DNA of 64,000 bases, from the IMG/VR virus record IMGVR_UViG_3300012973_000875; one strand, given 5' to 3'. The number at the start of each line of letters is the position of its first letter. Within the stretch, counting starts at the first letter, position 1. The stretch is from an uncultured virus (IMG/VR IMGVR_UViG_3300012973_000875). Its lineage: Duplodnaviria; Heunggongvirae; Uroviricota; Caudoviricetes. The position numbers and the translations under genes are program-made. This document shows positions 17,019 through 62,538 of the stretch, piece after piece. Below the pieces are notes generated by a model. It saw only the letters and a program-made list of their open reading frames with translations. It did no database searches and was not told the DNA's origin.

Positions 17019-17036
17019 CGATTAACGTTAATTACC
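17019..17036. promoter_or_regulatory. AT-rich palindromic site, copy 2
   Basis: cgATTAACGTTAATtacc, intergenic. Confidence 0.65.
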
Positions 17037-21758: not shown

Positions 21759-21768
21759 CGTTTATCGG
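21751..21768. promoter_or_regulatory. AT-rich palindromic site, copy 3
   Basis: ccgATTAACGTTTATcgg, overlapping a stop codon and 15 bp upstream of a -35 box. Confidence 0.65.
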
Positions 21769-33142: not shown

Positions 33143-33156
33143 TTAACGTTTATCGG
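33138..33156. promoter_or_regulatory. AT-rich palindromic site, copy 4
   Basis: ggtaATTAACGTTTATcgg, overlapping a stop codon. Confidence 0.65.
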
Positions 33157-33587: not shown

Positions 33588-33614
33588 TGGATGCCCGGCG
33601 ACACGGAGGTCGCG

Positions 33615-39400: not shown

Positions 39401-41609
39401 CAAGCGGCCATGGACGGCTGCCGCGATCGGCGCCGGCCTGGGCGGGCTTCGCGGCGCCAACCTGGCCATGCGATCGCCCGTGGAGTCGCTCGACAGTCGC
39501 AGCCTCAGCCGGGAGATCGCGCCGTTCTATGCCAATGCCCCGGGCGGATACGCCGGCGCGGTCGGCCGCGCGATCGCGAACCGAAAACCGATCGACGGTA
39601 TGTTCCCGCTCCAATTCAATCGCGGCGATCTCGACCGGCAGGTCCCGATCATCCAGTATCGCGACGGCATCCCCGGGCAGCCGTATAGCCTGGCAGGCGC
39701 GACGATCGGCGGCGGTTCGCAGCCCGCGCGTGTCGAACTGGCCAAGGGCGGCACGCAGGACGCTGCCGATCTCACGCGGCGACATGAATTGTCGCACGCT
39801 GGGCTTGATATGAATCCGGCGAGCCGTACGGGCGAATTGCCGCAGCCGTCGGCGTCGCTTATCGGTGGCGCCCCGGCCGATGCGCATCGCGTATACGCCC
39901 AGTCCGCCAGCGAACTGATCCCACGGATTTCGGAGATTAAGCGGCAGTTCGTCGCAGCACATCCCGGCACCGACGTCGATTCCGAGGCCGTTGCCAACGA
40001 GGCCCTCGAATGGTACGGACGGCAAATGTCCGATCCGGCCTCGGCGGCGGGCCTCGGCGGCGAGAGCGCGATCAGCGACTGGCAAGCGCTGGAGAAGGCC
40101 AAACCCGGCTGGTTGCGATCGATGATCCTCAAGCTCATGCCGCAACTCGTCGACACTGCGAGGACCGGGACGGATAAGACCGCAGCCATGCTCGGAGATG
40201 TCGAACTCCAGCCACAACAGAAGCGTGTCGCCGACCAGGACAACGACCTGCTCGTCTACCACGGCCTGGGCTCGGGCAAGACGCTCGCCGCGATCGCCGC
40301 CGCCGAGAAGGGCGGCGGCCCCTATCTGGCCGTCACGCCTGCGGCGCTGCGGCCCAACTTCCAGAAGGAGCGGGAGAAGTGGACCGACATGCAGACGCCG
40401 GCCACGACGCTCTCCTACACCCAGGTTGCCGGCGGTCACATCCCCGACCACGCCTACGACACGTTCATCGCCGACGAGGCTCACCGGCTGCGGAACCCGG
40501 ACTCGCAGCAGAGCAAGAACGTCGCCGCGCTGGCCGCCCAGGCCCGGCGGCGGATCCTGCTCTCGGGCTCGCCGATCGTCAACGCCCCGAGTGACCTGGC
40601 GATGCCGATGGCGATGGTGACCGGGCGATCGATGACCCCCGATCAGTTCGATCAGCAATTCATCGGCAAGGAGTACGTCAACCCGGGGCTCTGGGCCCGG
40701 CTCTGGGGGGTCAAGCCGACCTCCCGGCCGACGATCAAGAACGAGGACGAACTGGAGGACCTCTGGCGGGGTCACGTCGACTACTATGCTCCGGACAAGC
40801 CGCTGGTCGACTCGCAGACCGAGCGGATCGAGACCGACCTGGGCCCCGACCAGCAGGACTTCTACAAGCTCATGTGGGGCAAGCTCCCCTGGATGACGCG
40901 GTGGAAGCTGTCGCGGAACTACCCGCTGTCGAAGACCGAGGTCAAGAACCTCTCCAGCTTCATGACCGGCCCGCGTCAGGCGGGGCTGTCGTTGCTGCCG
41001 TTCATGGCCGAGGGGTCCGACCCCCTGGAGGCGTTCAAGGGGTCGCCCAAGCTCCAGCGGGCGATGAGTGAACTCGACAAGGAGTTCCAGAACCCCCAGG
41101 CCAAGGCCCTCATCTTCTCGAACTTCATCGACGCCGGCCTGACGCCGTATGCCGCCGCCCTGGCCGCCAAGGGGATTCCCCACGGCGTCTTCAAGGGGGG
41201 CATCAGCGATGCCGAACGGACCCAGATGGTCAACGACTACAACTCCGGCAAGCTGCGGGCGCTGCTCCTGGGCCCCAGTGGTTCGGAGGGGATCTCGACC
41301 CGGCGCACGAGCCTGATCCAGCAACTCGACCCCCACTTCAATGAGGCCCGCGAGGCGCAGAACAAGGGGCGAGGCATCCGCCTGGACAGCCACACGGACC
41401 TGCCGCCCGAGTTACGCAACGTCCGGGTCCAGCGATTCATCTCGCGGATGCCCGAGGGCTTCCTGGAGAACCTCCTGGGCCGGAACAAGCCGAGTGCCGA
41501 CGAGGTGCTCGAACGGATGTCGGCCGACAAGGAGCGGCTCAACGATCAGTTCCGCCGGGTTTTGCAGCGGGTCGGCACGCCGTCGCGGGCCGCTGGCTGG
41601 TTCGGGTAA
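36462..41609 (+). CDS. Multi-domain putative polyprotein: 2H phosphoesterase, Zn fingers, LigD-type 3'-phosphoesterase, Gly-zipper/HExxH module, SNF2-like helicase
   Basis: AHISV...FHCTV; CxxC clusters; FVVQQH...HHDVR...SWAAPKG...KRLAV...FEG; HELSH; YHGLGSGKT, DEAH, SGSP, GRGIR; modules separated by K-x-[A/G]. Confidence 0.85.
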   Translation: MSHPWSQTDLAEAEDRLHRMGQAWGYMTKAGGTPVAAPSLAGRLIASRSGWMLLEVPNAVVRGLFTALHEPGIELPLKDGVLTAHISVMTEDEVIALGGPQTITERGQTFHYQLGPLKSVEPSGWKDVSRCWFVEIQSPELKQLRKSYGLTPLPRGDHEFHCTVAVRRKHVLRPGEIRKAAHADRIPGTPSPTPSDPASSDRRSPQLHPPAAAGGEPRQPDPAGDPDRDGQRVLEHDDAVGLGTVDDRASALGGDSDDRGRGRAYDGGGHGSPAAVSPGLAALLGGRDGGAGQSPRDRDPAARSGAAPADPGCDVLIAKVAAATSLGAEAETARIHANRLQPQNQKPHPFREAGWTHPNGHPRCLRCGGEPRGDGTGPPYDLCQGYNPDHDKPARAKAQATRARRITKHDNRVAREHNPRIRAFGRKHGLDVSDILLAIKQAACESSPVDEHGDPCPDGECCPHCRARLEREPHDGTCNRCGKRWGPRLYRDKNATLLTIDDLNEASRLLSDDSVLDALTRRSLGGEAMLQRQAERGILPVPTVPTAQPVMPGSVTDDAIGLEMTDPQDNLLGFNDDAIEKEGEANPVLEQLRKAKAESDRRNFAAKHAILRPLLEQYPGEFVIDSQQHRFAGLTHSPTGFRIHMPRTAVPGTIKAAAPIPLAARIDAVMPRRRRRPVALPAAMAPVLPVDDEAELAAQMPLALQMLARPRRARRRRAAVSKLAAAKEDRHGALAALKPGAPLDFVVQQHDADQAGTHHDVRIGNPELGMFSWAAPKGLPKPGEKRLAVMQPTHPHSYNGFEGAIRSGYGKGQVRQHLAGKATPSRVEPGRLTFEAETPDGPQRFAMLRQEKWGPDNWLMLNTTKAASDEREHNNSIRDPAASGNGGLNGETSDRLHAAGPENRPAASRDAGVAEAGGDRRVAGKLPGHGLAGLRRVPADPEAITRVTKTAAISVDAAMPLAGAAVGGLGGLAVNKLFGFKRPWTAAAIGAGLGGLRGANLAMRSPVESLDSRSLSREIAPFYANAPGGYAGAVGRAIANRKPIDGMFPLQFNRGDLDRQVPIIQYRDGIPGQPYSLAGATIGGGSQPARVELAKGGTQDAADLTRRHELSHAGLDMNPASRTGELPQPSASLIGGAPADAHRVYAQSASELIPRISEIKRQFVAAHPGTDVDSEAVANEALEWYGRQMSDPASAAGLGGESAISDWQALEKAKPGWLRSMILKLMPQLVDTARTGTDKTAAMLGDVELQPQQKRVADQDNDLLVYHGLGSGKTLAAIAAAEKGGGPYLAVTPAALRPNFQKEREKWTDMQTPATTLSYTQVAGGHIPDHAYDTFIADEAHRLRNPDSQQSKNVAALAAQARRRILLSGSPIVNAPSDLAMPMAMVTGRSMTPDQFDQQFIGKEYVNPGLWARLWGVKPTSRPTIKNEDELEDLWRGHVDYYAPDKPLVDSQTERIETDLGPDQQDFYKLMWGKLPWMTRWKLSRNYPLSKTEVKNLSSFMTGPRQAGLSLLPFMAEGSDPLEAFKGSPKLQRAMSELDKEFQNPQAKALIFSNFIDAGLTPYAAALAAKGIPHGVFKGGISDAERTQMVNDYNSGKLRALLLGPSGSEGISTRRTSLIQQLDPHFNEAREAQNKGRGIRLDSHTDLPPELRNVRVQRFISRMPEGFLENLLGRNKPSADEVLERMSADKERLNDQFRRVLQRVGTPSRAAGWFG
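37006..37410 (+). CDS. Nested +1-frame gene with MLTASPERR tag inside polyprotein spacer
   Basis: Starts right after the host KAA codons and stops 5 nt before the host KVA; host frame here is low-complexity. Confidence 0.7.
   Translation: MLTASPERRARRQATRHPAIDAALNFTRQRLREESLASRILPAIRIEMGNESWNTTMPWASALWMTGPRPSAAIRTIADEAVRTMAEAMGPPPPYRLGSRLSSAAAMAEPDNHLGIAILPRDPERRRRILDATF
39127..39303 (+). CDS. Nested +1-frame 58 aa helical protein inside polyprotein spacer
   Basis: GGAGG RBS; MAKHPIDFTQQAQKIAQQLLAMPESQKLAEIAELRANYPVMASLVSDEFRRIRKLLQG*; stop lies 2 nt before the host KTAA. Confidence 0.65.
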   Translation: MAKHPIDFTQQAQKIAQQLLAMPESQKLAEIAELRANYPVMASLVSDEFRRIRKLLQG

Positions 41610-41622
41610 TAAACGTTAATCG
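41605..41622. promoter_or_regulatory. AT-rich palindromic site, copy 5
   Basis: ggtaATAAACGTTAATcg, overlapping a stop codon. Confidence 0.65.
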
Positions 41623-41681: not shown

Positions 41682-42899
41682 ATGTCCTACCCCAGGTACG
41701 AGCCGTCTAGCCGCACGGAGGCTGTCGTGGACGACGTAGAGAACCTTCCGATCCTCGCCGCTCAGCGCGTCTGCGTGGATCGGGTCCTGCCCGATTCCTG
41801 GGAGAGCGCCGCCCAGAAGTGGGCCGCCGCCGAGAACCCCGAGAACACCGGCAGCGCGATCCCCATGCCCGCGTCGATGGCGGTCGTGCGGTCGCGGAAG
41901 TGGCAACCGGGACGGACCCTGCGGGTCAAGTTCATTGGCGGGGCGCCGGCTGTCCGCCAGAAGGTCTTCTTCTGGGCCAAGCACTACGAGCAGTTCGCCA
42001 ACATCAAGTTCGAGCAGGTCACCGACTCCGCCGACGCCGAGATTCGCATCGCCTTCGAGCCCACCGAGGGGTCGTGGTCGTACGTCGGCACCGACATCCT
42101 GACGGTCCCCAGGAACCTGCCGACGATGAACTTCGGCTGGCTGACCCCGACCAGCAGCGACCAGGACTACTCCTCGGTCGTGCTCCACGAGTTCGGCCAC
42201 GCCCTGGGCTGCATCCACGAGCACCAGAGCCCCGCCGGCGGCATCCCCTGGGACAAGGACGTTGTCTACCGCGACCTGTCCGGCCCGCCCAACCGCTGGT
42301 CGAAGGCGCAGATCGACGCCAACATGTTCACCCAGTACAACCAGAACCAGACCCAGTTCACCGATCTGGATCCGGCGTCGATCATGATGTACTCGTTCCC
42401 CTCGGCCTGGACCGGCGGCAAGCTGGCCACCCGCTGGAACACGGTGCTCAGCCCGGTCGACAAGTCGTACATCGCGGCGATGTACCCCCGCGAGAACGCT
42501 CCGGCCCCGGACCCCCAGCCGGTCGCACCGCCGTCTCCGCCCGCCCCCGATCCCTCGCCGCCGCCGGAGACCGGCACCGTCCCGGGCACCCGCGCCGAGG
42601 GGGTCCTGCGGATCGACGGCAACCCCCGCACCTGTCAGATCAACACCGGCGAGATCGCCCAGTTCACCTTCCAGGTCACGCGGCGGGCCCGCTACATGCT
42701 CGGCACCGGCGGCCAGCAGGACCTGCTCGCCGAGATCTACACCCAGGCCGGTCAGCGGGTCGCCCAGGACGACGACGGCGGTGTCGGCGAAAACGCGATG
42801 GTCGTCGCGGCCCTCGACCCAGGTAACTACGTCGCGGCGATCACCTGCAAGAAGAAGGTGAGTCGTGGGCTCTACTCCATCGCGATCCGCAAGCGCTAG
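41682..42899 (+). CDS. Astacin-like (M12A) zinc metalloprotease with Pro linker and C-terminal PPC-like domain
   Basis: HEFGHALGCIHEHQ, SIMMY Met-turn, GSWSYVG; DDDGGVGENA....LDPGNY. Confidence 0.88.
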   Translation: MSYPRYEPSSRTEAVVDDVENLPILAAQRVCVDRVLPDSWESAAQKWAAAENPENTGSAIPMPASMAVVRSRKWQPGRTLRVKFIGGAPAVRQKVFFWAKHYEQFANIKFEQVTDSADAEIRIAFEPTEGSWSYVGTDILTVPRNLPTMNFGWLTPTSSDQDYSSVVLHEFGHALGCIHEHQSPAGGIPWDKDVVYRDLSGPPNRWSKAQIDANMFTQYNQNQTQFTDLDPASIMMYSFPSAWTGGKLATRWNTVLSPVDKSYIAAMYPRENAPAPDPQPVAPPSPPAPDPSPPPETGTVPGTRAEGVLRIDGNPRTCQINTGEIAQFTFQVTRRARYMLGTGGQQDLLAEIYTQAGQRVAQDDDGGVGENAMVVAALDPGNYVAAITCKKKVSRGLYSIAIRKR

Positions 42900-48875: not shown

Positions 48876-49325
48876 ATGAATGCGCGGGCAAAGTTCCGGG
48901 GGGATCAGGACAGCCGCTACGACGGCCAGTTGACCTGGCCCGGCAGTCAGGAAGGCTACCCCATCCTCGGCCGCGCGCCGGAGATGATGCGGCAGGATGA
49001 GTACGAGCAGATCACCCACGCCTGCTCGTTCAAGTGCCAGATGTACCGGACCTGGATCCCCGACGAGGTCGCCGAGTACCGCTGGGTCATGGACCGCGTG
49101 GCCAACCAACTCTTCATCCTCCGCGCCAACGATCGCCAGTGGGATGCCGCAAAGAAGGGCTACCACATCTGGTTAGAATGGGCGGAAGTCTACGGCCTGG
49201 CCCCCAACAGCACGCAGGTCGATCCGATGCAGAGCCTCACCGGCGGCCTGACCGCGCCGGCTGACGGGACACCAAGCTCGAACGGCCGGGGTCTGAGTGC
49301 GACCCGGGCGATCACACGGAGGTGA
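48876..49325 (+). CDS. Hypothetical protein
   Basis: Globular-looking ORF in the gene run upstream of RNAP. Confidence 0.75.
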   Translation: MNARAKFRGDQDSRYDGQLTWPGSQEGYPILGRAPEMMRQDEYEQITHACSFKCQMYRTWIPDEVAEYRWVMDRVANQLFILRANDRQWDAAKKGYHIWLEWAEVYGLAPNSTQVDPMQSLTGGLTAPADGTPSSNGRGLSATRAITRR

Positions 49326-49329
49326 TGCG

Positions 49330-50475
49330 ATGTCCGATCCGCAACTGACCGAGATGATGCAGGACCCGTCGAACGTCGCCAAGGCCAAGATCGTCTCCGA
49401 CCTGCTGCGGCTGGGTGTGGGGATGGGCGCCGTGGGCGTCGGTGCCCGGTCGCTGATGGGTCTGGCCGAGTTCCCCCGCCGCCAGTTCGCCCCGCCGCCG
49501 AAGTTCCCCCGCCGCCAGTCGCAGATCAAGATCCCTGTCCCGGTCCTCGACAAGGAGGCCAAGGTCCAGGTGCCCAGCTTCTCCGATCGCCCGCTGGAGT
49601 TCCTGGGGGCGCACGGGGCCAAGGCCCTGGGTCTGCTCAAGGACAAGGCGGGTCCGGCCTGGGGCGGGATGCGCGAGGTCATGATGAGTCATCGACCCGA
49701 CGCCACGCTGACGAACACCCCCTGGGGGCTCCCCGCCGCCGTGGCCGTCGGCGGAGCGGGCCTCTATGGCGGCTACAAGCTCACCGACAAGCTCCTGGGC
49801 AAGCAGCAGACCGCCGAGGACGAGGACGAACTGACCAAGGCGAAGGCCCGCTACGAGCGGGCCATGCTGGGCAACTACAAGCTCGCGGCCGCCGGCGAGA
49901 CGACCGACGAGCCCGAGCCGTTCGCGGGGCTCGACGAGCTTTGCGACCAGGTCAAGCAGGCCAACTGGTTCACCGAGACGGTGGGCCAGAAGCTGACCGA
50001 TGCCGGCAACAGTGGCCCGGGCGGGGCCTACCTGGGGGGCAACCTGGCCCTGGGGCTGCTGACGGCGGCCGGGACGGGGGCTCTGGCCTACAACAAGGCC
50101 AAGGGGAGCGGCCCCGAGCAGATCCTCGACGAGGCGGTCCGCCGCCGTGAGGAGATGCTGGCCGCGACCAATCCCATGCCGATCGAGGCGGTGCCAGCCC
50201 CCTACCGGGTCAGCCGCCGGCAGTACCAGGACGTGCAGCAGCGACTCAACCGGCTCGCCGCGCGGGACCTGCGGGGCTTGCCTGGGGCCGACAAGGCGGC
50301 CAACATGGGCGTGGCGGCGGCCGGCGCGTTAGGCCGGCTCAATGCCCGCCAGGCCGCGCTCTGGCGAGCGCAGCAGATCCAGATGGGGAACAAACCCGAC
50401 GACGGCAAGTCCAATGAGGGTCCGCAACAACCCCAGTTGCCCACGATGGCCGGGGCCCGCACGCGGACAGGCTGA
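49330..50475 (+). CDS. Gly-zipper protein with K-x-A motifs (probable virion-internal protein)
   Basis: GGAGGTG RBS; three hydrophobic Gly-rich segments separated by KEA, KLAA, KQA, KAA. Confidence 0.8.
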   Translation: MSDPQLTEMMQDPSNVAKAKIVSDLLRLGVGMGAVGVGARSLMGLAEFPRRQFAPPPKFPRRQSQIKIPVPVLDKEAKVQVPSFSDRPLEFLGAHGAKALGLLKDKAGPAWGGMREVMMSHRPDATLTNTPWGLPAAVAVGGAGLYGGYKLTDKLLGKQQTAEDEDELTKAKARYERAMLGNYKLAAAGETTDEPEPFAGLDELCDQVKQANWFTETVGQKLTDAGNSGPGGAYLGGNLALGLLTAAGTGALAYNKAKGSGPEQILDEAVRRREEMLAATNPMPIEAVPAPYRVSRRQYQDVQQRLNRLAARDLRGLPGADKAANMGVAAAGALGRLNARQAALWRAQQIQMGNKPDDGKSNEGPQQPQLPTMAGARTRTG

Positions 50476-50489
50476 GCGAGTGACCACAC

Positions 50490-50696
50490 ATGGGCGTCGA
50501 ACCACGCTACCTGGGCAAGACCACCGAGGACCTTCAGCAGGACCAGGATCACGCCGCCATCGAGGCGGCCGGGGTCCAACTCCGCCAGGCGAAGGCCCGC
50601 GAGCAGAAAACGCAGAATCTGGCGCGACGGATGGGCCAGACACCCCCGTCGCAACGAGGGAAATCGACCCATGCCAAGCGTGCTGGACAGTTTTGA
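50490..50696 (+). CDS. Possible small protein overlapping the RNAP start
   Basis: 68 aa filling the intergenic gap; weak RBS. Confidence 0.45.
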   Translation: MGVEPRYLGKTTEDLQQDQDHAAIEAAGVQLRQAKAREQKTQNLARRMGQTPPSQRGKSTHAKRAGQF

Positions 50697-53600
50697 CCCG
50701 ACGCAGCCCCTCCGCCCGCAGGCGACGCTGCCTGCGGGTGCTCCCCCGGCACTGGGCCTGACCCCGGTCACCCCGCTGGCCCCCCGGGCAGTCGCCACTC
50801 CGGTCCCGACCCCGCCGGCCGTGGACATGCGCGACTTCGGCGACTCCGCCGCGATCCGCCGGCAGATCTTCGCCAACGTCCGGGCCAAGGCCCAGGGGAT
50901 CGAGCCGATCACCAACGCCCGCCACACGCTCACCCTGCACGATGTCGACTACACCGGGCAGGAGGAATACTCGATCCGGGAGCGGAAGCGGGCGATCCTT
51001 CGCGGGGAGACGCTGGGTCGCCGGCTCCAGGGGACCTGGCTGCTGACGGACAACGCGACCGGGGCGACGATCGATCGCAAGCGGTCGACGATCGCCACCG
51101 TCCCCTACATGACCGACAGCGGCACGTTCATCAAGGGGGGCAACGAGTACACCCTGGCCCACCAGAGCCGGCTGCGGGCCGGGGTCTTCAGCCGCCGCCA
51201 GGACAACGGCGATTTGGAAGCCCACGTCAACGTCATGCCGGGCAAGGGGATCTCCAGCCGCGTCTACATGGAGCCGTCGACCGGGTTGTTCCGGCTCAAG
51301 GTCGCGCAGGCCAAGCTGCCGCTGCTGCCGGTGCTGCGGGCGATGGGGGTCACCGACGACCAACTCCGCAAGGCGTGGGGTAACGAGCTTGTCAGCCCCA
51401 ACATGCTCAAGGACGACCCCTCGGCGATCGACAAGCTCTACAAGCGGCTCTACCGCAGCGGCACCGAGGCGAACTTCGCCAACCGGGCCGCCGCCGTCGC
51501 CGACGCCTTCGCCAAGATGGAACTCGACCCGGAGGTCACCAAGCGGACATTAGGCGAGCCGTTCAAGGGGGTCGACGCCGCCGCCCTGCTGGCGACGACC
51601 AAGAAGCTGATCGCGATCAATCGCGGCGAGGCCGAGCCCGACGACCGCGACCACCTGGCCTACATGACCGTCCACGGCCCCGAGGACCTGCTCGCCGAGC
51701 GGCTGGGTAAGGACCGCCGGCTGCTGACGCGGATGCTCTGGAAGGCCGGGTCCAAGGGCGGCCTGCAAGCGATGAAGACCGACCTGTTCACCAAGTCGAT
51801 CGAGGCGGCCATCATGGGCTCGGGCCTCGGGCAACCGGTCGAGTCGATCAACCCGGCGCAGATCTTCGAGCAGCAGGGGCGCGTCAGCCGGCTGGGTGAG
51901 GGCGGCATCCCGTCGCTCGACTCGGTCCCGACCGAGGCTCGCAACGTCCAGCCGTCGCACTTCGGCTTCATCGATCCGCTGGTGACCCCCGAGAGCTTGA
52001 AGGTCGGCGTCGACAGCCGCGTCGTCCGGTCGGCCCGCAAGGGGGCCGACGGCCGGCTCTACTCGCCCTTCCGCGACATCAAGACCGGCCAGACCGTCTA
52101 CAAGAGCCCGCAGGAGATGGCCGACGCCACGATCGCCTTCCCCGGCGAACTGCGGAAGAACACGCCGATGGTCGCGGCCATGGTCGCCGGCCGCACCAAG
52201 TTCGTCCCCCGCGAGAAGATCGATTATGAGCTTCCGCAGATGGAGGACGCCTTCTCGCACATCACGAACCTGGTGCCGATGAAGTCGGCCGTCAAGGGGC
52301 AACGCGCGGTCATGGCCGGCCGCATGATCACCCAGGCGCTGCCGGTCTCCGAGCCCGAGAGCCCGCTGGTGCAGTCGGGGGTGCCCGGGTCGCAGGACGA
52401 TAGCTACGAGAACCAGTACGGCCGCTACATGGGGGCCGTCCGCAGCGACACGGCTGGCACGGTCGTGCAGGTCGACGGCGACTCGATCAAGGTCCGGGGG
52501 GCCGACGGCCGGGTCCGCGAGACCCAGCTTTACAACAATTTTCCGTACAACCGCAAAACTTTTGTCCACCAGTCGGCCGCCGTGAAGGTCGGCGACCCGG
52601 TCCAGCCCGGCCAACTCCTGGCCCGGTCGAACTACACCGACGCGCAGGGGGTCACCGCGCTGGGCAAGAATGCCCGGGTCGCCTACATCCCGTTCCGGGG
52701 GATGAACTTCGAGGATGCGATCGTCGTCAGTGCCTCGTTCGCCAAGCGGATGCGCAGCGAGCACATGTACCAGCACGGGATGGATCGCGACGATGACGTC
52801 AAGACGGGCAAGAAGGACTTCGTCTCCAGCTTCGCCACCAAGTTCCCCCGGGCGATCCTCGACACGATCGACGACGACGGGGTCGTCAAGCCGGGCACCA
52901 CGGTCGAGCACGGCCACCCGCTGGTGCTCGCCGTCAAGAAGCGGGACCGGACCCACGGGGCGATCCACCGAGGTCGCGACGCCTCGTTCGCCGACAAGAG
53001 TGAACTCTGGTCCCACCACTCCCCCGGGGTCGTCACCGACGTCGAAAAGACGAGCAAGGGGATCGTCGTCTCGGTCAAAAGCCACAACGAGATGGAGGTC
53101 GGGGACAAACTGAGTGGGCGCTACGGCGACAAGGGGGTCATCGCCGGGATCATTCCCGACGACGAAGTCCCGCACGATGCGCAGGGCCGCCCCTACGAGG
53201 TGCTCCTGAATCCGCTCGGGGTGATCACCCGCACCAACCCCAGTCAGATGGTCGAGGCGTCGCTGGGCAAGATCGCCGAGCGGACCGGCAAGGCGTACCG
53301 CGTCCAGGACTTCCAGGACCAGGACCTGACGCAGTACGCGATCGACGAACTGACCAAGCACCAGATGCAGGACCAGGAGAACATCTACGACCCCTCGACC
53401 GGCCGCGTCATCCCCAAGATCTTCACCGGCAACCGCTTCTTTATGAAGCTGCACCACACGGCCGAGTCGAAAGGGCAAGGACGCGGCACCGCCGGCTACA
53501 CGTCCGAGGGGCGACCGTCGAAGGGGGGCGAGACCGGCTCGAAGCGGATCTCGCTCATGGACATCAACGCGCTCTTGTCGCACGGGGCGACCGAGGTCCT

Positions 53601-55155
53601 CCGCGACGCCTCGGTCGTGCGGGGCCAGGAGCACCAGGACCTCTGGGCGCAGTTCATGTCGGGGCACAAGATGCCCACCCCCAAGGTGCCGTTCGTCCAC
53701 GAGAAGTTCGTCAACCAGTTGAAGGCCGCCGGGATCAACGTCATCCGCGAGGGGACCCGCCACCAGGTGATGGCCCTGACCGACGCCGACGTCCGCGAGA
53801 TGTCGGGCGACCGCGAGGTCACCTCGGGCGACACGGTCGACTGGAAGGGGGGCCTGAAGCCGATCCGGGGCGGCCTGTTCGACGAGCACCTGACGGGCGG
53901 TCACAACGGCAACCGCTGGGCGCACATCAAGCTCCACGAGCCGATGCCCAACCCCGTCATGGAGGAGCCGGTCCGCAAGATCCTGGGCCTGACCGAGAAG
54001 GAATACCGCGAGGTCCTGGGGGGCGACCGCCGGATCGCCGGCGCGACCGGCCCGGCGGCGATCGGCAAGGCGCTGGCGGCGATCGACGTCCCCAAGATGA
54101 TGGAGCAGGCCCGTGCCGAGATCGCCGGCAGCAAGCGGGGGGCCCGCGACCAGGCGATCCGCAAGCTCCGCTACCTGAAGGCGGCCGATCGGCTCAAGAT
54201 CCACCCCAAGGACTGGATGCTGTCGCAGGTGCCGGTCCTGCCGCCGATCTTCCGCCCGGTCTCGGTCATGGCCGGCTCGAAGATGCCGATGGTGGCCGAC
54301 CCCAACTACCTCTACAAGGAACTGCTGGAGGCCAACGACAACCTCAAGACGATGTCCGGGGCGGTCGACGACACCAAGGACGAGCGGCTGGCCCTCTACG
54401 ACACGTTCAAGGCGGTCACCGGCCTGGGCGACCCGCTCCACCCCAAGAACCAGGAGAAGCAGGTCAAGGGGATCCTCAAGCACGTCTTTGGCAACTCGCC
54501 CAAGGTGGGCGTCGTCCAGCGGAAACTGCTGGGAGCCTCGACCGACCTGGTCGGCCGGGCGGTGATCACCCCCAACCCCGACCTCGACATGGACACCGTC
54601 GGCGTCCCCGAGACCCGGGCCTGGGAGGTCTACAAGCCGTTCCTGATCCGCCGCCTGGTCCGCCGTGGCGTGCCCCGCCAGCAGGCCGCGCAGTTGGTCC
54701 ACGACAAGCACCAGCTTGCCAAGGACGCGCTGCTCCAGGAGATGGAGGCCCGCCCGGTGATCATCAACCGGGCCCCGGTGCTCCACCGCTACGGGATCAT
54801 GGCCTTCCGCCCCAAGCTCGTGAAGGGGGACACCCTCCAAGTCAGCCCGCTGATCGTTGGCGGGTTCAACGCCGACTTCGACGGCGACGCCATGCAGTAC
54901 CACGTCCCGGCCTCCGACGAGGCGGTCACCGACGCCATGGAGAAGATGCTGCCGTCGCGTAATCTGCTGGCCGCCAGCAACTTCAAGGTCCACCAACTCC
55001 CCAGCAAGGAATACGGCGGCGGCCTTTACGCGGCCTCCACGTTCCGTGATGATAAGCGGCAGGTCATGCGGTTTAGGACGAAACGCGACGCCATTCTGGC
55101 ACGCCAGCAGGGACGGATCGACGTGGACCAGCCGGTCGAGATTCTGGAGGACTGA
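50671..55155 (+). CDS. rpoBC: Phage multisubunit RNA polymerase, fused beta + N-terminal beta' (catalytic)
   Basis: beta motifs VPYMTDSGTFI, LGEGGI, HFGFIDPLVTPES, GMNFEDAIVVS, GDKLSGRYGDKG, NPLGV, MKLHH; beta' motifs GGLFD, VPVLPPIFRP, NRAPVLH, NADFDGD (54868-54888). Confidence 0.95.
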   Translation: MPSVLDSFDPTQPLRPQATLPAGAPPALGLTPVTPLAPRAVATPVPTPPAVDMRDFGDSAAIRRQIFANVRAKAQGIEPITNARHTLTLHDVDYTGQEEYSIRERKRAILRGETLGRRLQGTWLLTDNATGATIDRKRSTIATVPYMTDSGTFIKGGNEYTLAHQSRLRAGVFSRRQDNGDLEAHVNVMPGKGISSRVYMEPSTGLFRLKVAQAKLPLLPVLRAMGVTDDQLRKAWGNELVSPNMLKDDPSAIDKLYKRLYRSGTEANFANRAAAVADAFAKMELDPEVTKRTLGEPFKGVDAAALLATTKKLIAINRGEAEPDDRDHLAYMTVHGPEDLLAERLGKDRRLLTRMLWKAGSKGGLQAMKTDLFTKSIEAAIMGSGLGQPVESINPAQIFEQQGRVSRLGEGGIPSLDSVPTEARNVQPSHFGFIDPLVTPESLKVGVDSRVVRSARKGADGRLYSPFRDIKTGQTVYKSPQEMADATIAFPGELRKNTPMVAAMVAGRTKFVPREKIDYELPQMEDAFSHITNLVPMKSAVKGQRAVMAGRMITQALPVSEPESPLVQSGVPGSQDDSYENQYGRYMGAVRSDTAGTVVQVDGDSIKVRGADGRVRETQLYNNFPYNRKTFVHQSAAVKVGDPVQPGQLLARSNYTDAQGVTALGKNARVAYIPFRGMNFEDAIVVSASFAKRMRSEHMYQHGMDRDDDVKTGKKDFVSSFATKFPRAILDTIDDDGVVKPGTTVEHGHPLVLAVKKRDRTHGAIHRGRDASFADKSELWSHHSPGVVTDVEKTSKGIVVSVKSHNEMEVGDKLSGRYGDKGVIAGIIPDDEVPHDAQGRPYEVLLNPLGVITRTNPSQMVEASLGKIAERTGKAYRVQDFQDQDLTQYAIDELTKHQMQDQENIYDPSTGRVIPKIFTGNRFFMKLHHTAESKGQGRGTAGYTSEGRPSKGGETGSKRISLMDINALLSHGATEVLRDASVVRGQEHQDLWAQFMSGHKMPTPKVPFVHEKFVNQLKAAGINVIREGTRHQVMALTDADVREMSGDREVTSGDTVDWKGGLKPIRGGLFDEHLTGGHNGNRWAHIKLHEPMPNPVMEEPVRKILGLTEKEYREVLGGDRRIAGATGPAAIGKALAAIDVPKMMEQARAEIAGSKRGARDQAIRKLRYLKAADRLKIHPKDWMLSQVPVLPPIFRPVSVMAGSKMPMVADPNYLYKELLEANDNLKTMSGAVDDTKDERLALYDTFKAVTGLGDPLHPKNQEKQVKGILKHVFGNSPKVGVVQRKLLGASTDLVGRAVITPNPDLDMDTVGVPETRAWEVYKPFLIRRLVRRGVPRQQAAQLVHDKHQLAKDALLQEMEARPVIINRAPVLHRYGIMAFRPKLVKGDTLQVSPLIVGGFNADFDGDAMQYHVPASDEAVTDAMEKMLPSRNLLAASNFKVHQLPSKEYGGGLYAASTFRDDKRQVMRFRTKRDAILARQQGRIDVDQPVEILED

Positions 55156-55667
55156 TGGCCGACGACGCACCCGAGAACAACGATGATCCGGTGGCCGAGG
55201 AGCGGGCGAAACTGGCCGCGCAATGGGCCGAGACCTGGGGCGATCCCGACGATCCCCGGACCCGCGCCCGGATCGCCGACACGATCGCCGCGTTGGAGGA
55301 GGGCACGGCGACCGCGCCGGCACCCGGACTGTTCGAGGGTCCGGCGGACATCGACCACATCGTCCAGGTCGTGCTCACCGACGCGCTGCCGACACAGGTG
55401 GCGCTCAACGTGGTCCTGGGCATCGTCCGAGGCGGCCAGCGGTCAGCGATCCGCATGGCCGACCAGATGACCGCGTCGATCGATCCCACCACGGCCACGG
55501 CGTGCGTCCGGATCGTCCACGTCGCCTCGGACGGAACGATCCAGTACAGCCTCGTCGGCGGTCCGCTCCGGTTCGCGGCGATGACCCACGCGGAATTCCA
55601 AGCCAAGTACCCGACGCCGTCGCCTGATCACAAGGACGTGAACGATGCCGCACGCGGAAACGATTAA
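55155..55667 (+). CDS. Hypothetical protein
   Basis: TGATG-coupled to RNAP; GGAGGA RBS. Confidence 0.75.
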   Translation: MADDAPENNDDPVAEERAKLAAQWAETWGDPDDPRTRARIADTIAALEEGTATAPAPGLFEGPADIDHIVQVVLTDALPTQVALNVVLGIVRGGQRSAIRMADQMTASIDPTTATACVRIVHVASDGTIQYSLVGGPLRFAAMTHAEFQAKYPTPSPDHKDVNDAARGND

Positions 55668-56439
55668 CTACGACCTGCTCAAGCTGGCCCGGTGGCGGGT
55701 GGCGAATGATCGCGACTTCGAGAAGTCCGCCGTGGTGCCCCCTGGCGGCGGAGCCCCTCCCGGTGGCGACCCCGCCGCGATGGGGGGTGCGCCTCCGGGC
55801 GGTGATCCCATGATGGGGGGCGGAGCCCCCGGCGGCATGGCCCCACCGATGGATCCCGCCGCGATGGGGGGTGCCCCTCCCGGTGGCGACCCCATGATGG
55901 GGGGTGGCGCCCCTCCCGGCGGCGGTGCCCCGATCGATCCGGCGATGCAGATGGCGATCCAGCAGGCCGTCCAGCAGGCGGTGGGCGGGGCCGGTGGCGG
56001 CATGGCCGGCGGCAAGCCGGGGGCCGGCGGCGGCAAGAAGGCCGAACAGGCCATGCTCGACACCAAGCTCTGGCAGATCATCAAGATGCTCGCCACGATG
56101 ATGACCCACCAGGGCATCCCGGTGCCGCCGGACATCGTCGTCGGGGCTCCTCCCGACCCGGCGATGCTCCAGATGGCCAACCAGGACAACGCCCAGTCGT
56201 CGGTCCCTGGCGGTGGCGGCGATCCGAGCATGGGGGGCGGCGGCGGGGGCGGCATCCCGCCGATCGACCCGATGCAGGCCGACCCCGCGATGGGGGGCGG
56301 GGCTCCCAAGATGGCCGCCGACCGCCAGGCGCACGACCTCGGCTCGGCGTTCGACACCCAGTCGTTCCGGGCCTTGCACAGCCGCTCGGCGTCGCTGGCG
56401 GCGCTGTCCCGCCGCCGCAACCGGGAGACCGCTGAGTGA
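55645..56439 (+). CDS. Gly/Pro/Met-rich low-complexity protein with K-x-A motifs
   Basis: GGAPPGGDP[AAM/MM] repeats between EKSA and PKMAA. Confidence 0.75.
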   Translation: MPHAETINYDLLKLARWRVANDRDFEKSAVVPPGGGAPPGGDPAAMGGAPPGGDPMMGGGAPGGMAPPMDPAAMGGAPPGGDPMMGGGAPPGGGAPIDPAMQMAIQQAVQQAVGGAGGGMAGGKPGAGGGKKAEQAMLDTKLWQIIKMLATMMTHQGIPVPPDIVVGAPPDPAMLQMANQDNAQSSVPGGGGDPSMGGGGGGGIPPIDPMQADPAMGGGAPKMAADRQAHDLGSAFDTQSFRALHSRSASLAALSRRRNRETAE

Positions 56440-56681
56440 AAGTCGAGATCCTGCGGAACCTGCAACCACTGGTCCTCGACGCGAACCGGGTCGTCCTCCG
56501 CAACAGCTTTGGCGACCCGGTGTTCGTCTGCGTCGAGTACGCCACGAACACGTTCCTGTCCGCCAAGGCGGGGGACCCGGAGTTCGACCGGATCCTCCAG
56601 AACCTGGGGATCCAGAACACACTCGTCGTGGAAACGCTCCACCCCAAGCCGCTCGATGACTGGCGGTTCCCCGGTCGCTAG
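56436..56681 (+). CDS. Small hypothetical protein
   Basis: GTGA-coupled; globular-looking. Confidence 0.7.
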   Translation: MKVEILRNLQPLVLDANRVVLRNSFGDPVFVCVEYATNTFLSAKAGDPEFDRILQNLGIQNTLVVETLHPKPLDDWRFPGR

Positions 56682-56682
56682 G

Positions 56683-56700
56683 TTAATTAACGTTTATCGG
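56683..56700. promoter_or_regulatory. AT-rich palindromic site, copy 6
   Basis: ttaATTAACGTTTATcgg directly upstream of the beta'-C gene. Confidence 0.65.
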
Positions 56701-56707
56701 GGGCAGG

Positions 56708-58654
56708 ATGCCACTCAAGACCACCGTCGGGCAGTTGCTGATCAACGAGGCGCTCCCGCCGGAGATGCGGGACTACAACCGCACGCTCGATAAGAAGGGG
56801 ATCGCCAAGCTCTTCCAGGAGATCGCCGAGAAGCGGCCGGACCTCTACAAGGACGTCGCCCAGAAGCTCTCCGACGTCGGCCGCGACGTCGCCTACACGA
56901 CCGGCGGCTTCAGCTTCGGGCTGCGGGACATGCTGCCGAGCAAGGTCGCGCAGGTCGCCCGCCAGCAGATCGAGTCCGAGGTTCGGTCGATCCAGGCCAA
57001 CCCCCGGCTTACCGACGACCAGAAGGAGGAGGCGATCATCCGCGCGGTGGGCCGCCACCAGCAGACACTCGAAGGCCAGATCTTCGCCGAGGCCAAGGCG
57101 AGCAAGAACCCGCTGGCCGGGCAGATCATGTCGGGGGCACGCGGCAGCCCCATGAACCTCAAGTCGCTGCTGGGGGCCGACCTGCTCTACGTCGACCACC
57201 ACGCCCGCGAGATCCCGATCCCGGTCCTGAACCCGTACCCGCGCGGCCTCTCGCCGGTGGAATACTGGGCCGGGGCGTTCGGGGCCCGCAAGGGGGTCGC
57301 CGACACCAAGTTCGCCACCCAGGAGGCGGGCTATTTCGCCAAGCAGTTGAACCAGATCGACCACCGGCTCGTCGTCACCCAGCAGGATGACGACGAGGAC
57401 GACGACGCCAACGGCGCGATTCGCGGCCTGCCGGTCGATACCGATGACGGCGACTCGGCCGGGGCCCTGCTGGCGCAGCCGGTGGGCACCTACAAGCGCA
57501 ACACCGTGCTCACCCCGCGCATCCTCAAGGACCTCCAGAACCAGGGGATCAAGCGGATCGTGGTCCGCTCGCCGATGATCGGCGGGCCGGCACAGGGGGG
57601 TGTCTTCGCCCGCGACGTCGGGGTGCGGGAACGGGGCGGCATGGCCCCGCTGGGGGACCAGGTCGGCCTGGCCGCCGCGCAGGCCCTCTCCGAGAAGCTC
57701 ACCCAGGGGCAGCTAAGCTCGAAGCACTCCGGCGGCGTCGCCGGGGCCGAGCAGGCGGTCACCGGCTTCAAGTACATCAACCAGTTGATCCAGGTCCCCA
57801 AGACCTTCAAGGGGGGTGCCGCGCACGCCCAGGTCGACGGCATCGTCAACAACGTCACCGACGCCCCGCAGGGGGGCAAGTACATCTTCGTCGGCGGCGA
57901 GCAGCACTACGTCCCGCACGGCGTCGACATCAAGGTCAAGCCGGGCGATGCGATCGAGGCGGGGGACGTCCTGTCCGCCGGGATCCCCAATCCGGCCGAG
58001 ATCGTCAAGCACAAGGGGATCGGCGAGGGGCGGCGGTACTTCATGAACACGTTCCGCAAGGCGTACTCCGACTCGGGGATGGGGGCCGACCGGCGGAACA
58101 TCGAACTGCTGTCGCGCGGTCTCATCGACCACGTCAACGTCACCGACGAGTTCGGCGACTTCGTCCCCGACGACGTGACCTCGTATTCGACGATCGAGCG
58201 GAACTGGCAACCACGCGACGGCACACGGGCGATGAACACGACCTCGGCGGCGGGCAAGTACCTGGAACGGCCGATCCTCCATTACTCGATTGGCACCAAG
58301 ATCAGACCGAGTATCATAAAAGAGCTTGGTGAATTCGGGGTCAGCAACGTCGAGGTCCATGACGATCCGCCCCCCTTCGAGCCCGTCATGATCCGAGGGG
58401 CCTCGAATCTCCAACACGACCCCGACTTCATCACCCGCCACCTCGGATCCGGCCTCCAGAAGGCCACGCTCGGTGCGGTCCACCTGGGCGGCACGAGTGA
58501 TGCAAGCGGAACGAGCTACGTTCCGGCCAAAGTCTGGAATCCGACCGAGTTCGGACGGCAGGGTCTGGTCCAGGGCTGGAAGCCCAAGACCCCGTCGGTG
58601 CTGTCGACGCCTCCGACCCGAGGGCCGTCAGACAATGTCCTCTCACCGCTTTAA
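56708..58654 (+). CDS. rpoC: Phage multisubunit RNA polymerase, C-terminal part of beta'
   Basis: TTVGQ, SGARGS, GLSPVEYW...GARKGVADT..T.EAGY (bridge helix), AAQALSEKLTQ.....HSGG (trigger loop), RNIELL. Confidence 0.93.
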   Translation: MPLKTTVGQLLINEALPPEMRDYNRTLDKKGIAKLFQEIAEKRPDLYKDVAQKLSDVGRDVAYTTGGFSFGLRDMLPSKVAQVARQQIESEVRSIQANPRLTDDQKEEAIIRAVGRHQQTLEGQIFAEAKASKNPLAGQIMSGARGSPMNLKSLLGADLLYVDHHAREIPIPVLNPYPRGLSPVEYWAGAFGARKGVADTKFATQEAGYFAKQLNQIDHRLVVTQQDDDEDDDANGAIRGLPVDTDDGDSAGALLAQPVGTYKRNTVLTPRILKDLQNQGIKRIVVRSPMIGGPAQGGVFARDVGVRERGGMAPLGDQVGLAAAQALSEKLTQGQLSSKHSGGVAGAEQAVTGFKYINQLIQVPKTFKGGAAHAQVDGIVNNVTDAPQGGKYIFVGGEQHYVPHGVDIKVKPGDAIEAGDVLSAGIPNPAEIVKHKGIGEGRRYFMNTFRKAYSDSGMGADRRNIELLSRGLIDHVNVTDEFGDFVPDDVTSYSTIERNWQPRDGTRAMNTTSAAGKYLERPILHYSIGTKIRPSIIKELGEFGVSNVEVHDDPPPFEPVMIRGASNLQHDPDFITRHLGSGLQKATLGAVHLGGTSDASGTSYVPAKVWNPTEFGRQGLVQGWKPKTPSVLSTPPTRGPSDNVLSPL

Positions 58655-59901: not shown

Positions 59902-62538
59902 GTGGTCACGACTCGCCCCTCACGGAAGACGGAATACTGGCTCACGGTCTGCCGGAGCCACGCGGTCGACGGCCTGTCGATGACCAAGGTGGCCGACCTG
60001 GGCGGCGACGGCTCCGACATGCCGTTCGAGCAGGCGTTCTCCAACCTGGCGCACGCCTACATCAAGGACAAGGCCCCCGGCCTGCTCGACTACGAGGTCG
60101 GGTTCCAGCTTGTCGATCGCACCGACGACAACAAGAAGGCCATCGGCGTCTTCGGCTTCAAGGTCGGCTCCAGTTGGCTCCTGGTCCCGGTCTTCTTCCT
60201 GGCCGGCGACCTGAAGGGGCACGAGATCCTCTACATCAAGAACCAGGACACCTTCGTGCCGCTGAAGGAAAACTGGATCAACTACATCCTCAACAAGAAG
60301 CCGCTGTCGCTGGGCGAGGGGGTCGGCCGCAACCCCCGCGAGATCGGCATCCGCAACCCCGACTACTCGCAGTTCGCGCATTCCCCCTCGACCTCGAAGT
60401 CGGCCGCCGCGCGAGCCCGGCGGATCACCCCCGAGGAATCGATCGAATTGGCGGCGACCGCCGCCAAGCTCACCAAGGCCGCCGCCGCGACCATGGACGC
60501 GGCGACCTTCGAGGTCTTTGACGAGATGCCCGCCTGGGCCAAGGTCGCGACCCACTCGATGGCCGTGGCGATGGCCCGCGACCCCCGCACCATGCCGGCG
60601 ATCGGGATCGACTTCCCGGCGATGCTCAAGCTGGCCGGTGTCGACGGGGCCAAGGCGACCCTGGCGATGTGCAGCGCCTACCCGACGGTCGCCCGCGCGA
60701 TCGACCAGTTCTACCCCCGCGAAACGATCGACGAGGCGATCCGCCACATCAAGCAGGCGGCCACCCGCGTCTCCACCGTCCTCGACGCCGACGACCCGAT
60801 GATCCCCAGCCGCTACCGGGTCCGCCGCGAGCCGCAGTCACGGCAGTCGGTCCTGACCCCGAGTAGCCCGGTCAAGCAGGGCTCGCTCCAGGTCTACGCC
60901 TACGACCCAGGGCAGGAGTCGAATCTTCCCGCGACGATCGCGGAGAAGGACTACGATAAGCTCCTGCGGGACGGTGTCCTGATCAAGGACACCCGCAAGG
61001 GCGATGACGAGGTCTCGATCGCCTACCACACGACGACGACCCGGCAACTGGTCAACCCCGACGTCACCGGGCTCTACGACGTCATGGTCGCCCCCGACCT
61101 GTACGAGAAGATGCTGGTGATCCTGGGACCGCACGGCCCCTACGGCCGCCGCGACTTCTGCACGGTGATCGCCCTGGACGGGGCCAAAGGGTGGCTCAAC
61201 CTCCACCCGACCTACGTCTGGGTATCCAAGCAGCATTCGACCGACGACCTCCAGGACTGGGCCGACAGCCTGCCCGAGGCCGACTCGATCGACGACGGTC
61301 AGTACGTGCTGCTCAGTCCCGAGGGAACCGACGGCACGCTGCCGTTCGTCCACGACTCGACGACCGCCGGCAAGATCATCAACGTCCACTTCGACCTGTT
61401 CAGCGGCCGGCCCCGCCAGGCGTACATGCGGGGCGAGTCGCACCAACGCAACTTCGACACCCTGGCGGCCAACAACGACGAGCAGTACGACCGCTGGAAC
61501 CACGGCGAGCGGATCAACCTCGGGGGCCGCAAGGGGACGACGATCCGCAGCAACTTCGGCGACGTCTTCATCCCCAAGGGCTGGAAGAAGTTCAAGATCG
61601 AGGAGGCCGACTACGCCGACGACCAGTGGGATGCCCCGGAATACGACGGCTCGAACCAGACCAAGCGGGTCGTCAAGAGCCTGACCGGCGGCCTGGGGCA
61701 ATCGAAGACCCCGCCGATCACCGGAGCCAACGTCGTCGATGTCGAACTGGGGATCTGGCAGAAGGTCTCCTCGGTCACCGACCGGCTGGAGATCCGCGCG
61801 ACCGGCACCCGGATCGTGATCGACGGTACGCCGTTCACCAAGCGGGCCGCCCTGATCGAACTGGTCCGCGATCGCGGACTCCGCGAGGTCGTGGCCCGCG
61901 ACATGATCGCCGACGCCGAGGGTGCCCTGGTCAAGCGCGGGGCCTCCCGCCGCGCGTACCGCGTCCGCTACGCCCCCTGGGTCAAGGCGGCCGCCGGTGG
62001 TCCGTTCCTGACGCACGGGGCCCCGAGTGCACCCCCCTTCCCCGATCCCGAGTCCTCGGGATCGTCGTTCATGGGCACTGGGTTTGAAACCCAGCAGCCG
62101 CAGGAAATGACGATCCCCGTCGACGACATGAAGCAGGACCAGACCGAGGCCCGCGAGTCGCAGAGCCCGTACACCCCCGACCCGATGGCGGCGCAGGTCG
62201 CCACCCAGGCGGCGCAGACCGGCCAGAAGGAGATCTTCGACACCGCGATGGTCGGCAGCCTGCTCAAGACGACCCGCGATGACCTCTTGGTCGACAAGCA
62301 CCTGGGGGCCCTGCTCAAGGGGCTCGACAAGATCGGCCGGCTGCTGTTCCTGCTCTACTGGCACCAGGACGAGTTCGCCGACCGCTACGGCAAGGAGGCG
62401 GTCCCCGAACTGGAGGACTCGCTCCGCAACACGTTCGAGAGCCTGGGCGACCTGGTCCTGTTCCTCAAGCAGCGGACGATCGATCCCTACCCCGACGGCG
62501 GCACGAGTGTTGACCTGAAGGACACCGCCAACGCCTAA
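59902..62538 (+). CDS. Large K-x-[A/S/G]-punctuated protein of unknown function (probable virion component)
   Basis: AAGGAGG RBS; KVA, KSAA, KAAA, KLAG, KQAA, KQG, KVS, KAAA. Confidence 0.8.
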   Translation: MVTTRPSRKTEYWLTVCRSHAVDGLSMTKVADLGGDGSDMPFEQAFSNLAHAYIKDKAPGLLDYEVGFQLVDRTDDNKKAIGVFGFKVGSSWLLVPVFFLAGDLKGHEILYIKNQDTFVPLKENWINYILNKKPLSLGEGVGRNPREIGIRNPDYSQFAHSPSTSKSAAARARRITPEESIELAATAAKLTKAAAATMDAATFEVFDEMPAWAKVATHSMAVAMARDPRTMPAIGIDFPAMLKLAGVDGAKATLAMCSAYPTVARAIDQFYPRETIDEAIRHIKQAATRVSTVLDADDPMIPSRYRVRREPQSRQSVLTPSSPVKQGSLQVYAYDPGQESNLPATIAEKDYDKLLRDGVLIKDTRKGDDEVSIAYHTTTTRQLVNPDVTGLYDVMVAPDLYEKMLVILGPHGPYGRRDFCTVIALDGAKGWLNLHPTYVWVSKQHSTDDLQDWADSLPEADSIDDGQYVLLSPEGTDGTLPFVHDSTTAGKIINVHFDLFSGRPRQAYMRGESHQRNFDTLAANNDEQYDRWNHGERINLGGRKGTTIRSNFGDVFIPKGWKKFKIEEADYADDQWDAPEYDGSNQTKRVVKSLTGGLGQSKTPPITGANVVDVELGIWQKVSSVTDRLEIRATGTRIVIDGTPFTKRAALIELVRDRGLREVVARDMIADAEGALVKRGASRRAYRVRYAPWVKAAAGGPFLTHGAPSAPPFPDPESSGSSFMGTGFETQQPQEMTIPVDDMKQDQTEARESQSPYTPDPMAAQVATQAAQTGQKEIFDTAMVGSLLKTTRDDLLVDKHLGALLKGLDKIGRLLFLLYWHQDEFADRYGKEAVPELEDSLRNTFESLGDLVLFLKQRTIDPYPDGGTSVDLKDTANA

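Follow-up and report, generated by a model that had tools for sequence, protein, structure and literature searches.

Cysteine-free cellular-type RNA polymerase without β′ zinc sites in an uncultured clade of Arash-like phages

A 64-kb window of the uncultured phage record IMGVR_UViG_3300012973_000875 encodes a multisubunit, cellular-type RNA polymerase (RNAP) that contains no cysteine and has lost both zinc sites of its β′ subunit. β and the N-terminal part of β′ (β′N) are joined in one open reading frame (ORF) of 1494 residues (β::β′N, positions 50671–55155), and the C-terminal part (β′C) is a separate gene of 648 residues downstream on the same strand (56708–58654). The enzyme is an Arash-like cellular-type RNAP that combines cysteine suppression of the kind found in phage N4 with the loss of both zinc sites. 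The clade to which it belongs shows what replaces the two zinc sites and every thiol, and its RNAP offers a ready-made cysteine-less polymerase for biochemistry.

The window has a GC content of 66–69%, and all of its convincing genes lie on the plus strand. The contig from which it is taken is a 73.6-kb fragment, and related genomes measure 150–235 kb. Judged from its sequence, the source is an uncultured phage of a large lineage resembling Salmonella phage Arash. Among the 50,697 records of a phage collection, none is more than 60% identical to the window RNAP.

Chain architecture and loss of the zinc sites

The phage RNAP is a two-barrel multisubunit enzyme of the cellular type, distributed over two chains. 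The large chain comprises a complete β up to about residue 1040, and the remainder corresponds to the N-terminal, catalytic part of β′. It matches the Pfam families Rpb2_6 (E 2.8e-50, residues 621–943) and Rpb1_2 (E 6.2e-25) and, more weakly, Rpb2_2 and Rpb2_3. It also matches phrog_24349 (E 4.9e-68) and phrog_25354 (E 9.6e-55) in PHROGs, and Arash gp206 is 31.7% identical to it across 95% of the chain length. The catalytic Mg-binding β′ motif, NADFDGD, is located at residues 1400–1406 (54868–54888).

The small chain is recognised by Pfam Rpb1_5 (E 1e-20), and solved bacterial β′ chains in the PDB match both parts of the RNAP (best E 8e-52 and 6.6e-37). Its alignment with bacterial β′ extends to about residue 481–497, leaving a C-terminal segment of some 150 residues (about 500–648; 58200–58654) outside. 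This tail is well conserved in the clade, with the pattern PPPFEP...HDPDWMTR...GTSYVP...FGR, and may represent a lineage-specific domain.

Arash and four relatives rated 100% complete each have one β catalytic locus (Rpb2_6) per genome, which is split by an insertion in one complete relative. The two-polymerase arrangement of phiKZ-type phages is not found in these genomes. Pfam finds no α or ω family and no sigma factor in the 63 ORFs of the window, which covers part of the genome. A phmmer search with ORFs from the sigma region of Arash and of the related genome G001 returned one weak match (E 5e-4), to a 1058-residue protein, which was disregarded.

Neither chain contains a cysteine (0 of 1494 and 0 of 648 residues), in agreement with the first-pass annotation of this stretch. 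The 63 plus-strand ORFs hold 166 cysteines in 18,327 residues, or 1.03% when the RNAP is excluded, and at this rate the binomial chance of finding none in the 2142 RNAP residues is 2.6e-10.

We located the former zinc sites by alignment with E. coli rpoC (from NC_000913.3), whose ligands are C70, C72, C85 and C88 for the N-terminal zinc ribbon (Zn-I) and C814, C888, C895 and C898 for the second site (Zn-II). The Zn-I region of the large chain, residues 1067–1088 (53869–53934), reads GGLFDEHLTGGHNGNRWAHIKL. In an alignment that includes rpoC, Arash and Vibrio phage D69, a short loop, TGGHNGN, takes the place of the ribbon, and about 6 residues stand for the 32-residue rpoC stretch carrying the four ligands. 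The ribbon deletion reported in the first-pass annotation is thereby confirmed. Likewise, a weak N-terminal alignment with Taq β′ (2gho construct) ends at residue 51 and restarts at 146. The window RNAP carries the same GGLFD...TGG-x-G...W loop with ribbon deletion as the Arash-like lineage. In relatives, 52 on-target strings show this loop to be conserved where the ribbon would lie, and cysteine occurs in only one of them, at an insertion junction. A replacement metal site based on histidine was considered for this position and rejected because the loop has a single conserved histidine among the 52 strings.

The former Zn-II site spans 57374–57622 in the small chain. Here the segments VTQQDDD (57374–57394), RSPMIGG (57566–57586) and GVFARDVG (57599–57622) align with the bacterial DCG, TC and GVCxxCYG motifs, and the four ligand columns are occupied by D, G, F and D, so that every ligand is substituted. 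The replacement of the second-site cysteines had been read in the same way from the window alone, by comparison with E. coli strings that we find in rpoC at 809, 883 and 893. The clade consensus at this site is SPxVGGPxxGGV[YFW]ARDVG.

Cysteine content across the clade and in distant relatives

A search with the small chain scored 7999 candidates, of which 1909 proteins reached E ≤1e-5. In the list of 119 relatives that are 56–69% identical to the query, 108 have no cysteine and one of normal length has a single cysteine. The other 10 have at least two, and as all of these are at least 814 residues long they carry insertions; Pfam annotation assigns some of these long relatives to intein or homing-endonuclease families.

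From 137 confirmed matches, we then took 80 loci on viral contigs, each with flanks of 10 kb, and collapsed identical proteins. In 79 of the 80 loci a homologue of the large chain adjoins β′C. The aligned parts of the large chain (74 distinct proteins) hold 28 cysteines in 97,017 residues (0.029%), and those of the small chain (67 distinct proteins) hold 14 in 41,392 (0.034%). Of these, eight serve as Zn-II ligands in the distant members L067 and L078. In contrast, the unaligned, inserted parts of the same 74 large chains have 162 cysteines in 8,115 residues (2.0%). All remaining ORFs of the loci hold 3,742 in 351,786 residues, a background of 1.06% that spurious ORFs may inflate, since ORFs were called by a crude longest-ORF rule. 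Three families from the same loci served as controls. Homologues of Arash gp218 (62 distinct proteins, 48,459 aligned residues), represented in the window by an 878-residue protein identified by sequence match (59902–62538, plus strand), have 0.87% cysteine, and two smaller families have 2.1% and 2.5%.

Counted as the first-pass annotation had proposed, across the proteome and in homologues, cysteine thus stands at 0.03% in the RNAP against a background of about 1%. Because the sequences are related, the counts cannot be treated as independent trials. Nevertheless, a deficit of about 30-fold at about 55% identity, together with cysteine-rich insertions in the same genes, argues for selection that keeps cysteine out of the RNAP. 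The absence of cysteine is the rule of this clade and not a quirk of one phage.

Many relatives have insertions of 200–1600 residues inside either RNAP gene, or split genes (loci L008, L009, L011, L024, L033, L036, L056, L059, L069, L078–L081, L083, L086 and others). Intein or LAGLIDADG Pfam families are found on some of these insertions.

Relatives outside the clade retain part of what it has lost. Arash and D69 are 27–32% identical to the window RNAP, and the metagenomic members L067 and L078 are 38–40% identical. All four keep four Zn-II cysteines in β′C, which fall on the ligand columns by alignment in Arash and D69 and have the same spacing in L067 and L078. In the large chain, Arash has 1 cysteine, D69 has 2, L067 has none, and L078 has 7, of which 2 are aligned and 5 lie in an insertion. 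Alignment with rpoC shows that Arash and D69 already lack the zinc ribbon. Because they share this deletion, the ribbon was lost before the lineage split. With the ribbon gone, few free cysteines left and Zn-II kept in Arash and D69, these losses came first and the rebuilding of Zn-II later. In the environmental clade of the window, the second site was rebuilt without ligands, as a conserved GG / aromatic / Arg-Asp motif.

Proposed virion delivery and alternative explanations

The suppression of cysteine extends to neighbours of the polymerase, with 0.03% in the RNAP, 0.17% in the gene immediately upstream and none in a SNF2 ATPase module. The upstream gene of the window (49297–50475, plus strand) encodes a 392-residue protein with glycine-rich hydrophobic stretches and one cysteine, and its homologues hold 2 cysteines in 2188 aligned residues. 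The 0.17% is the value for this position in relatives, where 52 distinct proteins (17,171 residues) are found, 38 of them without cysteine; the gene immediately downstream of the RNAP has 0.96%. The 392-residue protein is a candidate for a co-delivered partner. The two RNAP genes are separated by three small plus-strand ORFs of 170, 264 and 81 residues (55155–56681). The 264-residue protein (55645–56439) has Gly/Pro/Met/Ala repeats in its middle part, with 22 methionines and no cysteine. Its homologues and those of the 81-residue protein occur in 24 and 40 of the 80 loci, with 0.10% and 0.38% cysteine in aligned residues.

The SNF2 module (residues 1281–1705; 40188–41462) is about 35% identical to the SNF2 helicase of Arash, gp217, and lies in a 1753-residue protein (36348–41609, plus strand) in which Pfam also recognises a 2H phosphoesterase and a LigD 3′-phosphoesterase. 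The first-pass annotation described the module as cysteine-free. This is accurate for the module itself but not for its carrier, which has 15 cysteines, all within residues 10–519; the following 1234 residues (520–1753), including the module, have none. SNF2 homologues found in three of five complete relatives are also without cysteine, in 482, 472 and 484 aligned residues.

In relatives, the RNAP genes are located just upstream of a block of head genes. Downstream of β′C we find gp218-like genes in 48, gp222-like genes in 58 and genes resembling the major capsid protein (MCP) in 6 of the 80 loci, the last at the edge of the flanks. The window ends before the MCP-like position. A search of the neighbouring genes with PHROGs and NCBIfam gave almost no structural annotation.

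A link to the virion is provided by Arash, whose sucrose-gradient-purified particles contain 116 proteins according to the mass spectrometry (MS) reported in PMC10585845. In that report the β::β′N chain gp206, with 1 cysteine in 1525 residues, is represented by 128 unique peptides and 3516 spectra, the highest number of all. It is accompanied by β′C (gp216; 40 unique peptides, 1210 spectra, 4 cysteines in 606 residues), the SNF2 helicase gp217 (38, 1148, 0 in 472) and the sigma factor gp10 (24, 467, 0 in 234). For comparison, the portal yields 32 unique peptides and 877 spectra (4 cysteines in 579 residues), and the tail protein gp191 yields 58 and 832 (12 in 1657). The primase (12 cysteines in 965 residues) has 2 unique peptides and 932 spectra, and the ligase and two helicases have 2 unique peptides each and 217–517 spectra, one of the helicases, gp197, having 9 cysteines in 537 residues. 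The replication enzymes of Arash contain 1.2–2.4% cysteine, the terminase 2.4% and the ribonucleotide reductase 1.4%. The virion data are those of the Arash homologue, 27–32% identical to the window enzyme, and the zinc-free clade is known from its genes alone.

We consider it fairly likely that the core enzyme is packaged along with the SNF2 ATPase, probably accompanied by a sigma-like factor, is expelled with the DNA and starts early transcription, and that the loss of cysteine and zinc is tied to this delivery. Late in infection, core RNAP, SNF2 ATPase and, probably, the sigma-like factor would be packed into the head. In the next cell they would be expelled with the DNA and would transcribe the early genes ahead of all phage protein synthesis. 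Thiols and metal sites would be a disadvantage to a protein that has to survive outside the cell, cross a narrow tail channel at least partly unfolded and an oxidising envelope, and then refold unaided. Since there is only one RNAP set per genome, newly made copies of the same core, probably with other specificity factors, would serve the later genes. More tentatively, the whole machine of bacterial type (two-chain core, SNF2 ATPase and specificity factor) could be stored in the capsid, threaded through the tail unfolded and refolded with neither metal nor thiol, a scenario for which we hold less than even confidence.

The first-pass annotation had likewise proposed a virion-packaged polymerase ejected through the cell envelope. 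This proposal is favoured by the strong detection of the Arash RNAP in virions, the synteny with head genes, the single RNAP set and the precedent of the Schitoviridae. Several observations weigh against delivery as the reason for the purge. Arash, D69, L067 and L078 keep the Zn-II cysteines, so that the very RNAP that is associated with Arash virions has a four-cysteine zinc site. Homologues in the same role that retain cysteine, which the earlier annotation took to count against its proposal, are therefore in part what we find. The RNAP that phiKZ injects has 16 cysteines in 2614 residues (0.61%), compared with 33 in 2850 (1.16%) in its non-virion RNAP and a background of 0.92% (subunit lists from PMC8287921), which means that delivery does not demand a cysteine-free protein. 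The SNF2 module is part of an ORF whose first 519 residues hold 15 cysteines, among them a cluster that recurs in a relative. The window yielded no sigma factor. The gp218-like family, called structural from the Arash virion MS, has an ordinary cysteine content. Finally, the MS list of Arash virions also includes ribonucleotide reductase, ligase and primase, and its authors allow for carry-over of abundant proteins (PMC10585845). The loss of cysteine thus agrees with delivery and points to it, yet a protein can be delivered without such a loss, and the loss does not prove delivery.

In an alternative explanation, in our judgement unlikely, the RNAP is never packaged. It would act only inside the cell on middle or late genes, with the host RNAP reading the early genes, and the design without cysteine and zinc would have a different use. 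It could confer resistance to oxidants or electrophiles in the infected cell, make the enzyme independent of the host zinc supply, or protect it from a phage weapon or host factor that targets the zinc sites of cellular RNAP. The many metabolic and replication enzymes in the Arash preparation and the cysteines of the injected phiKZ enzyme agree with this explanation. So does the non-virion RNAP of phage AR9, which lacks the N-terminal β′ zinc domain that PMC7618050 calls common to all multisubunit RNAPs. However, the unique peptides of the Arash RNAP (128 and 40), SNF2 helicase (38) and sigma factor (24) resemble those of the portal (32) and tail (58), and the replication enzymes have 2–3. Intracellular phage enzymes of the same genomes keep about 1–2% cysteine. 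Furthermore, the purge reaches the membrane-like upstream neighbour and the SNF2 module, and the genes adjoin the head genes.

It is rather improbable, in our view, that the RNAP is packaged but was purged by long storage in an oxidising extracellular particle and not by passage through tail and envelope. Many abundant Arash virion proteins that need no ejection are indeed free or nearly free of cysteine, among them the MCP (0 of 307 residues), tail protein gp227 (0 of 283), gp4 (0 of 1097) and gp229 (2 of 2548), and the N4 major coat protein has none in 401 residues. Other virion proteins retain it, including Arash gp191 (12 cysteines), gp8 (9) and portal (4), the gp218-like family (0.87%) and the 160-kDa protein of N4 (11). 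Storage would also leave unexplained the removal of a buried structural zinc site that is tolerated in Arash virions. A neutral history, in which an ancestor of all members lost its cysteines by chance and the state was inherited once with no present selection either way, is very improbable given 42 cysteines in 138,409 aligned residues at about 55% median identity, 2% in insertions and 0.9–2.5% in neighbouring families, 382 of the 2142 window codons a single substitution from a cysteine codon (134 of them by transition), and a GC content that ranges from 0.41 to 0.66 across the 80 loci.

If the whole machine is indeed stored, threaded and refolded in this way, no earlier cellular-type RNAP would have been shown to dispense with both zinc sites, and the purge of cysteine and zinc would be a signature from which the ejected protein set of any tailed phage could be predicted. 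Delivery from the virion would in itself offer a simple compositional marker for ejected proteins in uncultured phages. As Arash grows on a laboratory strain of Salmonella, the central claims are directly testable.

Other features of the window and comparison with known systems

Two proteins are enriched in the sequence K-x-A-[A/S], which often follows T-x, namely the 1753-residue protein (7 sites against 1.5 expected, at residues 357, 478, 693, 760, 903, 987 and 1277) and the gp218-like protein (5 against 0.67, at residues 166, 192, 284, 647 and 695). None of 300 shuffles reaches the observed count in either protein, and neither RNAP chain contains the motif. In the 1753-residue protein the last site ends at residue 1280, and homology to gp217 begins at 1281. 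These sites would fit polyproteins cut by a head protease.

A 16-bp AT-rich near-palindrome with the core TTAACGTTWAT, matching on both strands, lies at six gene boundaries (9556–9571, 17019–17034, 21752–21767, 33140–33155, 41607–41622 and 56684–56699; 0.02 expected by chance) of a genome with 68% GC. It was found by eye and then confirmed. One copy precedes the β′C start codon by 9 bp, and several share bases with the stop codon of the gene before them. The element may act as a promoter, terminator or regulatory site specific to the lineage. None of the 80 related loci contains it, and it therefore says nothing about the clade. A count of intergenic 8-mers in search of a phage promoter revealed no enriched motif.

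Several further genes of the window have recognisable domains. A sensor histidine kinase with CHASE3, PAS, HisKA and HATPase_c domains and phage-like codon usage is located within the phage gene array (33591–35351). We attempted to assign a host from this gene, but its best cellular matches, in Bacteroidota metagenome-assembled genomes, reach 46% over the kinase core and are uninformative. A 201-residue protein (3059–3664) has an Acb2/Tad1 hairpin domain (Pfam E 2e-11) and may act as a sponge that sequesters cyclic-nucleotide defence signals. The second gene upstream of the RNAP encodes a 149-residue protein (48876–49325) with homologues in 39 of the 80 loci, which matches YacL/UPF0231 weakly in NCBIfam (E 4.4e-5, below cut-off) and in Pfam (E 0.0066). 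A 405-residue protein (41682–42899) matches astacin-type metallopeptidases (Pfam E 2e-6) and, in part, the NCBIfam model 'beta-glucuronidase AbsR1' (E 2e-44, below cut-off).

In open-access PMC papers and bioRxiv we found no description of a cysteine-free or zinc-free multisubunit phage RNAP. The main text of the mReC paper (PMC7481178) does not mention cysteine, zinc or virion, and the moraphage paper (PMC12619734), on a lineage that lacks RNAP, has no bearing on the question.

The closest likeness is to Arash (gp206, 1525 residues, and gp216, 606 residues; OQ632216.1, PMC10585845) and the Vibrio phages D69, D148 and D181, which have the same β::β′N fusion with a separate downstream β′C. Arash and D69 also share the ribbon deletion, the associated SNF2 helicase, the gp218-like gene and the near absence of free cysteine. 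They differ in keeping the four Zn-II cysteines, at an identity of only 27–32%, and in the position of SNF2, which is a separate 472-residue gene adjoining β′C in these phages and ends the 1753-residue protein 9 kb upstream in the window.

The break between the two chains lies near the junction of γ and β′ in cyanobacteria, whose β′, like that of plastids, is split at a similar position. Residues 187–552 of the 624 residues of γ are covered by the alignment with the large chain, and the alignment of the small chain with cyanobacterial β′ begins at residue 32 of the latter. Unlike the window RNAP, the cyanobacterial enzyme does not have β fused to γ, and it retains its zinc sites.

Two other phage systems have multisubunit RNAPs that share single traits with the window enzyme. 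The non-virion RNAP of AR9, as described in PMC7618050, is also without the N-terminal β′ zinc domain. Unlike the window RNAP, it is a highly diverged enzyme of five subunits, and it is not carried in the virion. In phiKZ-type phages (Chimalliviridae), the virion RNAP (vRNAP), composed of gp178, gp149, gp180 and gp80, is a multisubunit β/β′-like enzyme injected with the DNA (PMC8287921). phiKZ has two RNAP sets, which are split differently, and the lineage of the window has one set per genome.

The suppression of cysteine itself has its counterpart in N4 and the Schitoviridae, whose vRNAP (gp50) is stored in the capsid and ejected, and where suppression is family-wide and common to adjacent genes. 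We count no cysteine in the 3500 residues of the N4 vRNAP, in line with the earlier statement that it lacks cysteine, and none in the ejection proteins gp51 and gp52. For 191 Schitoviridae, cysteine is reported to make up 0.865% of the proteome, 0.00075% of the vRNAP homologues and 0.0055% of the gp72 homologues, and passage through a periplasm with disulfide-forming enzymes has been suggested as the cause (PMC11445570). That ejected proteins of N4 unfold as they pass a channel of about 35 Å has been discussed (PMC12633501). The N4 enzyme is a single-subunit, T7-like polymerase of about 3500 residues from a podovirus, with no sequence kinship to the window RNAP, which is a two-chain enzyme of cellular type with zinc sites to lose. 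If the latter is delivered from the virion, the N4 principle would extend from a single-subunit polymerase to a 240-kDa two-chain enzyme of the cellular type.

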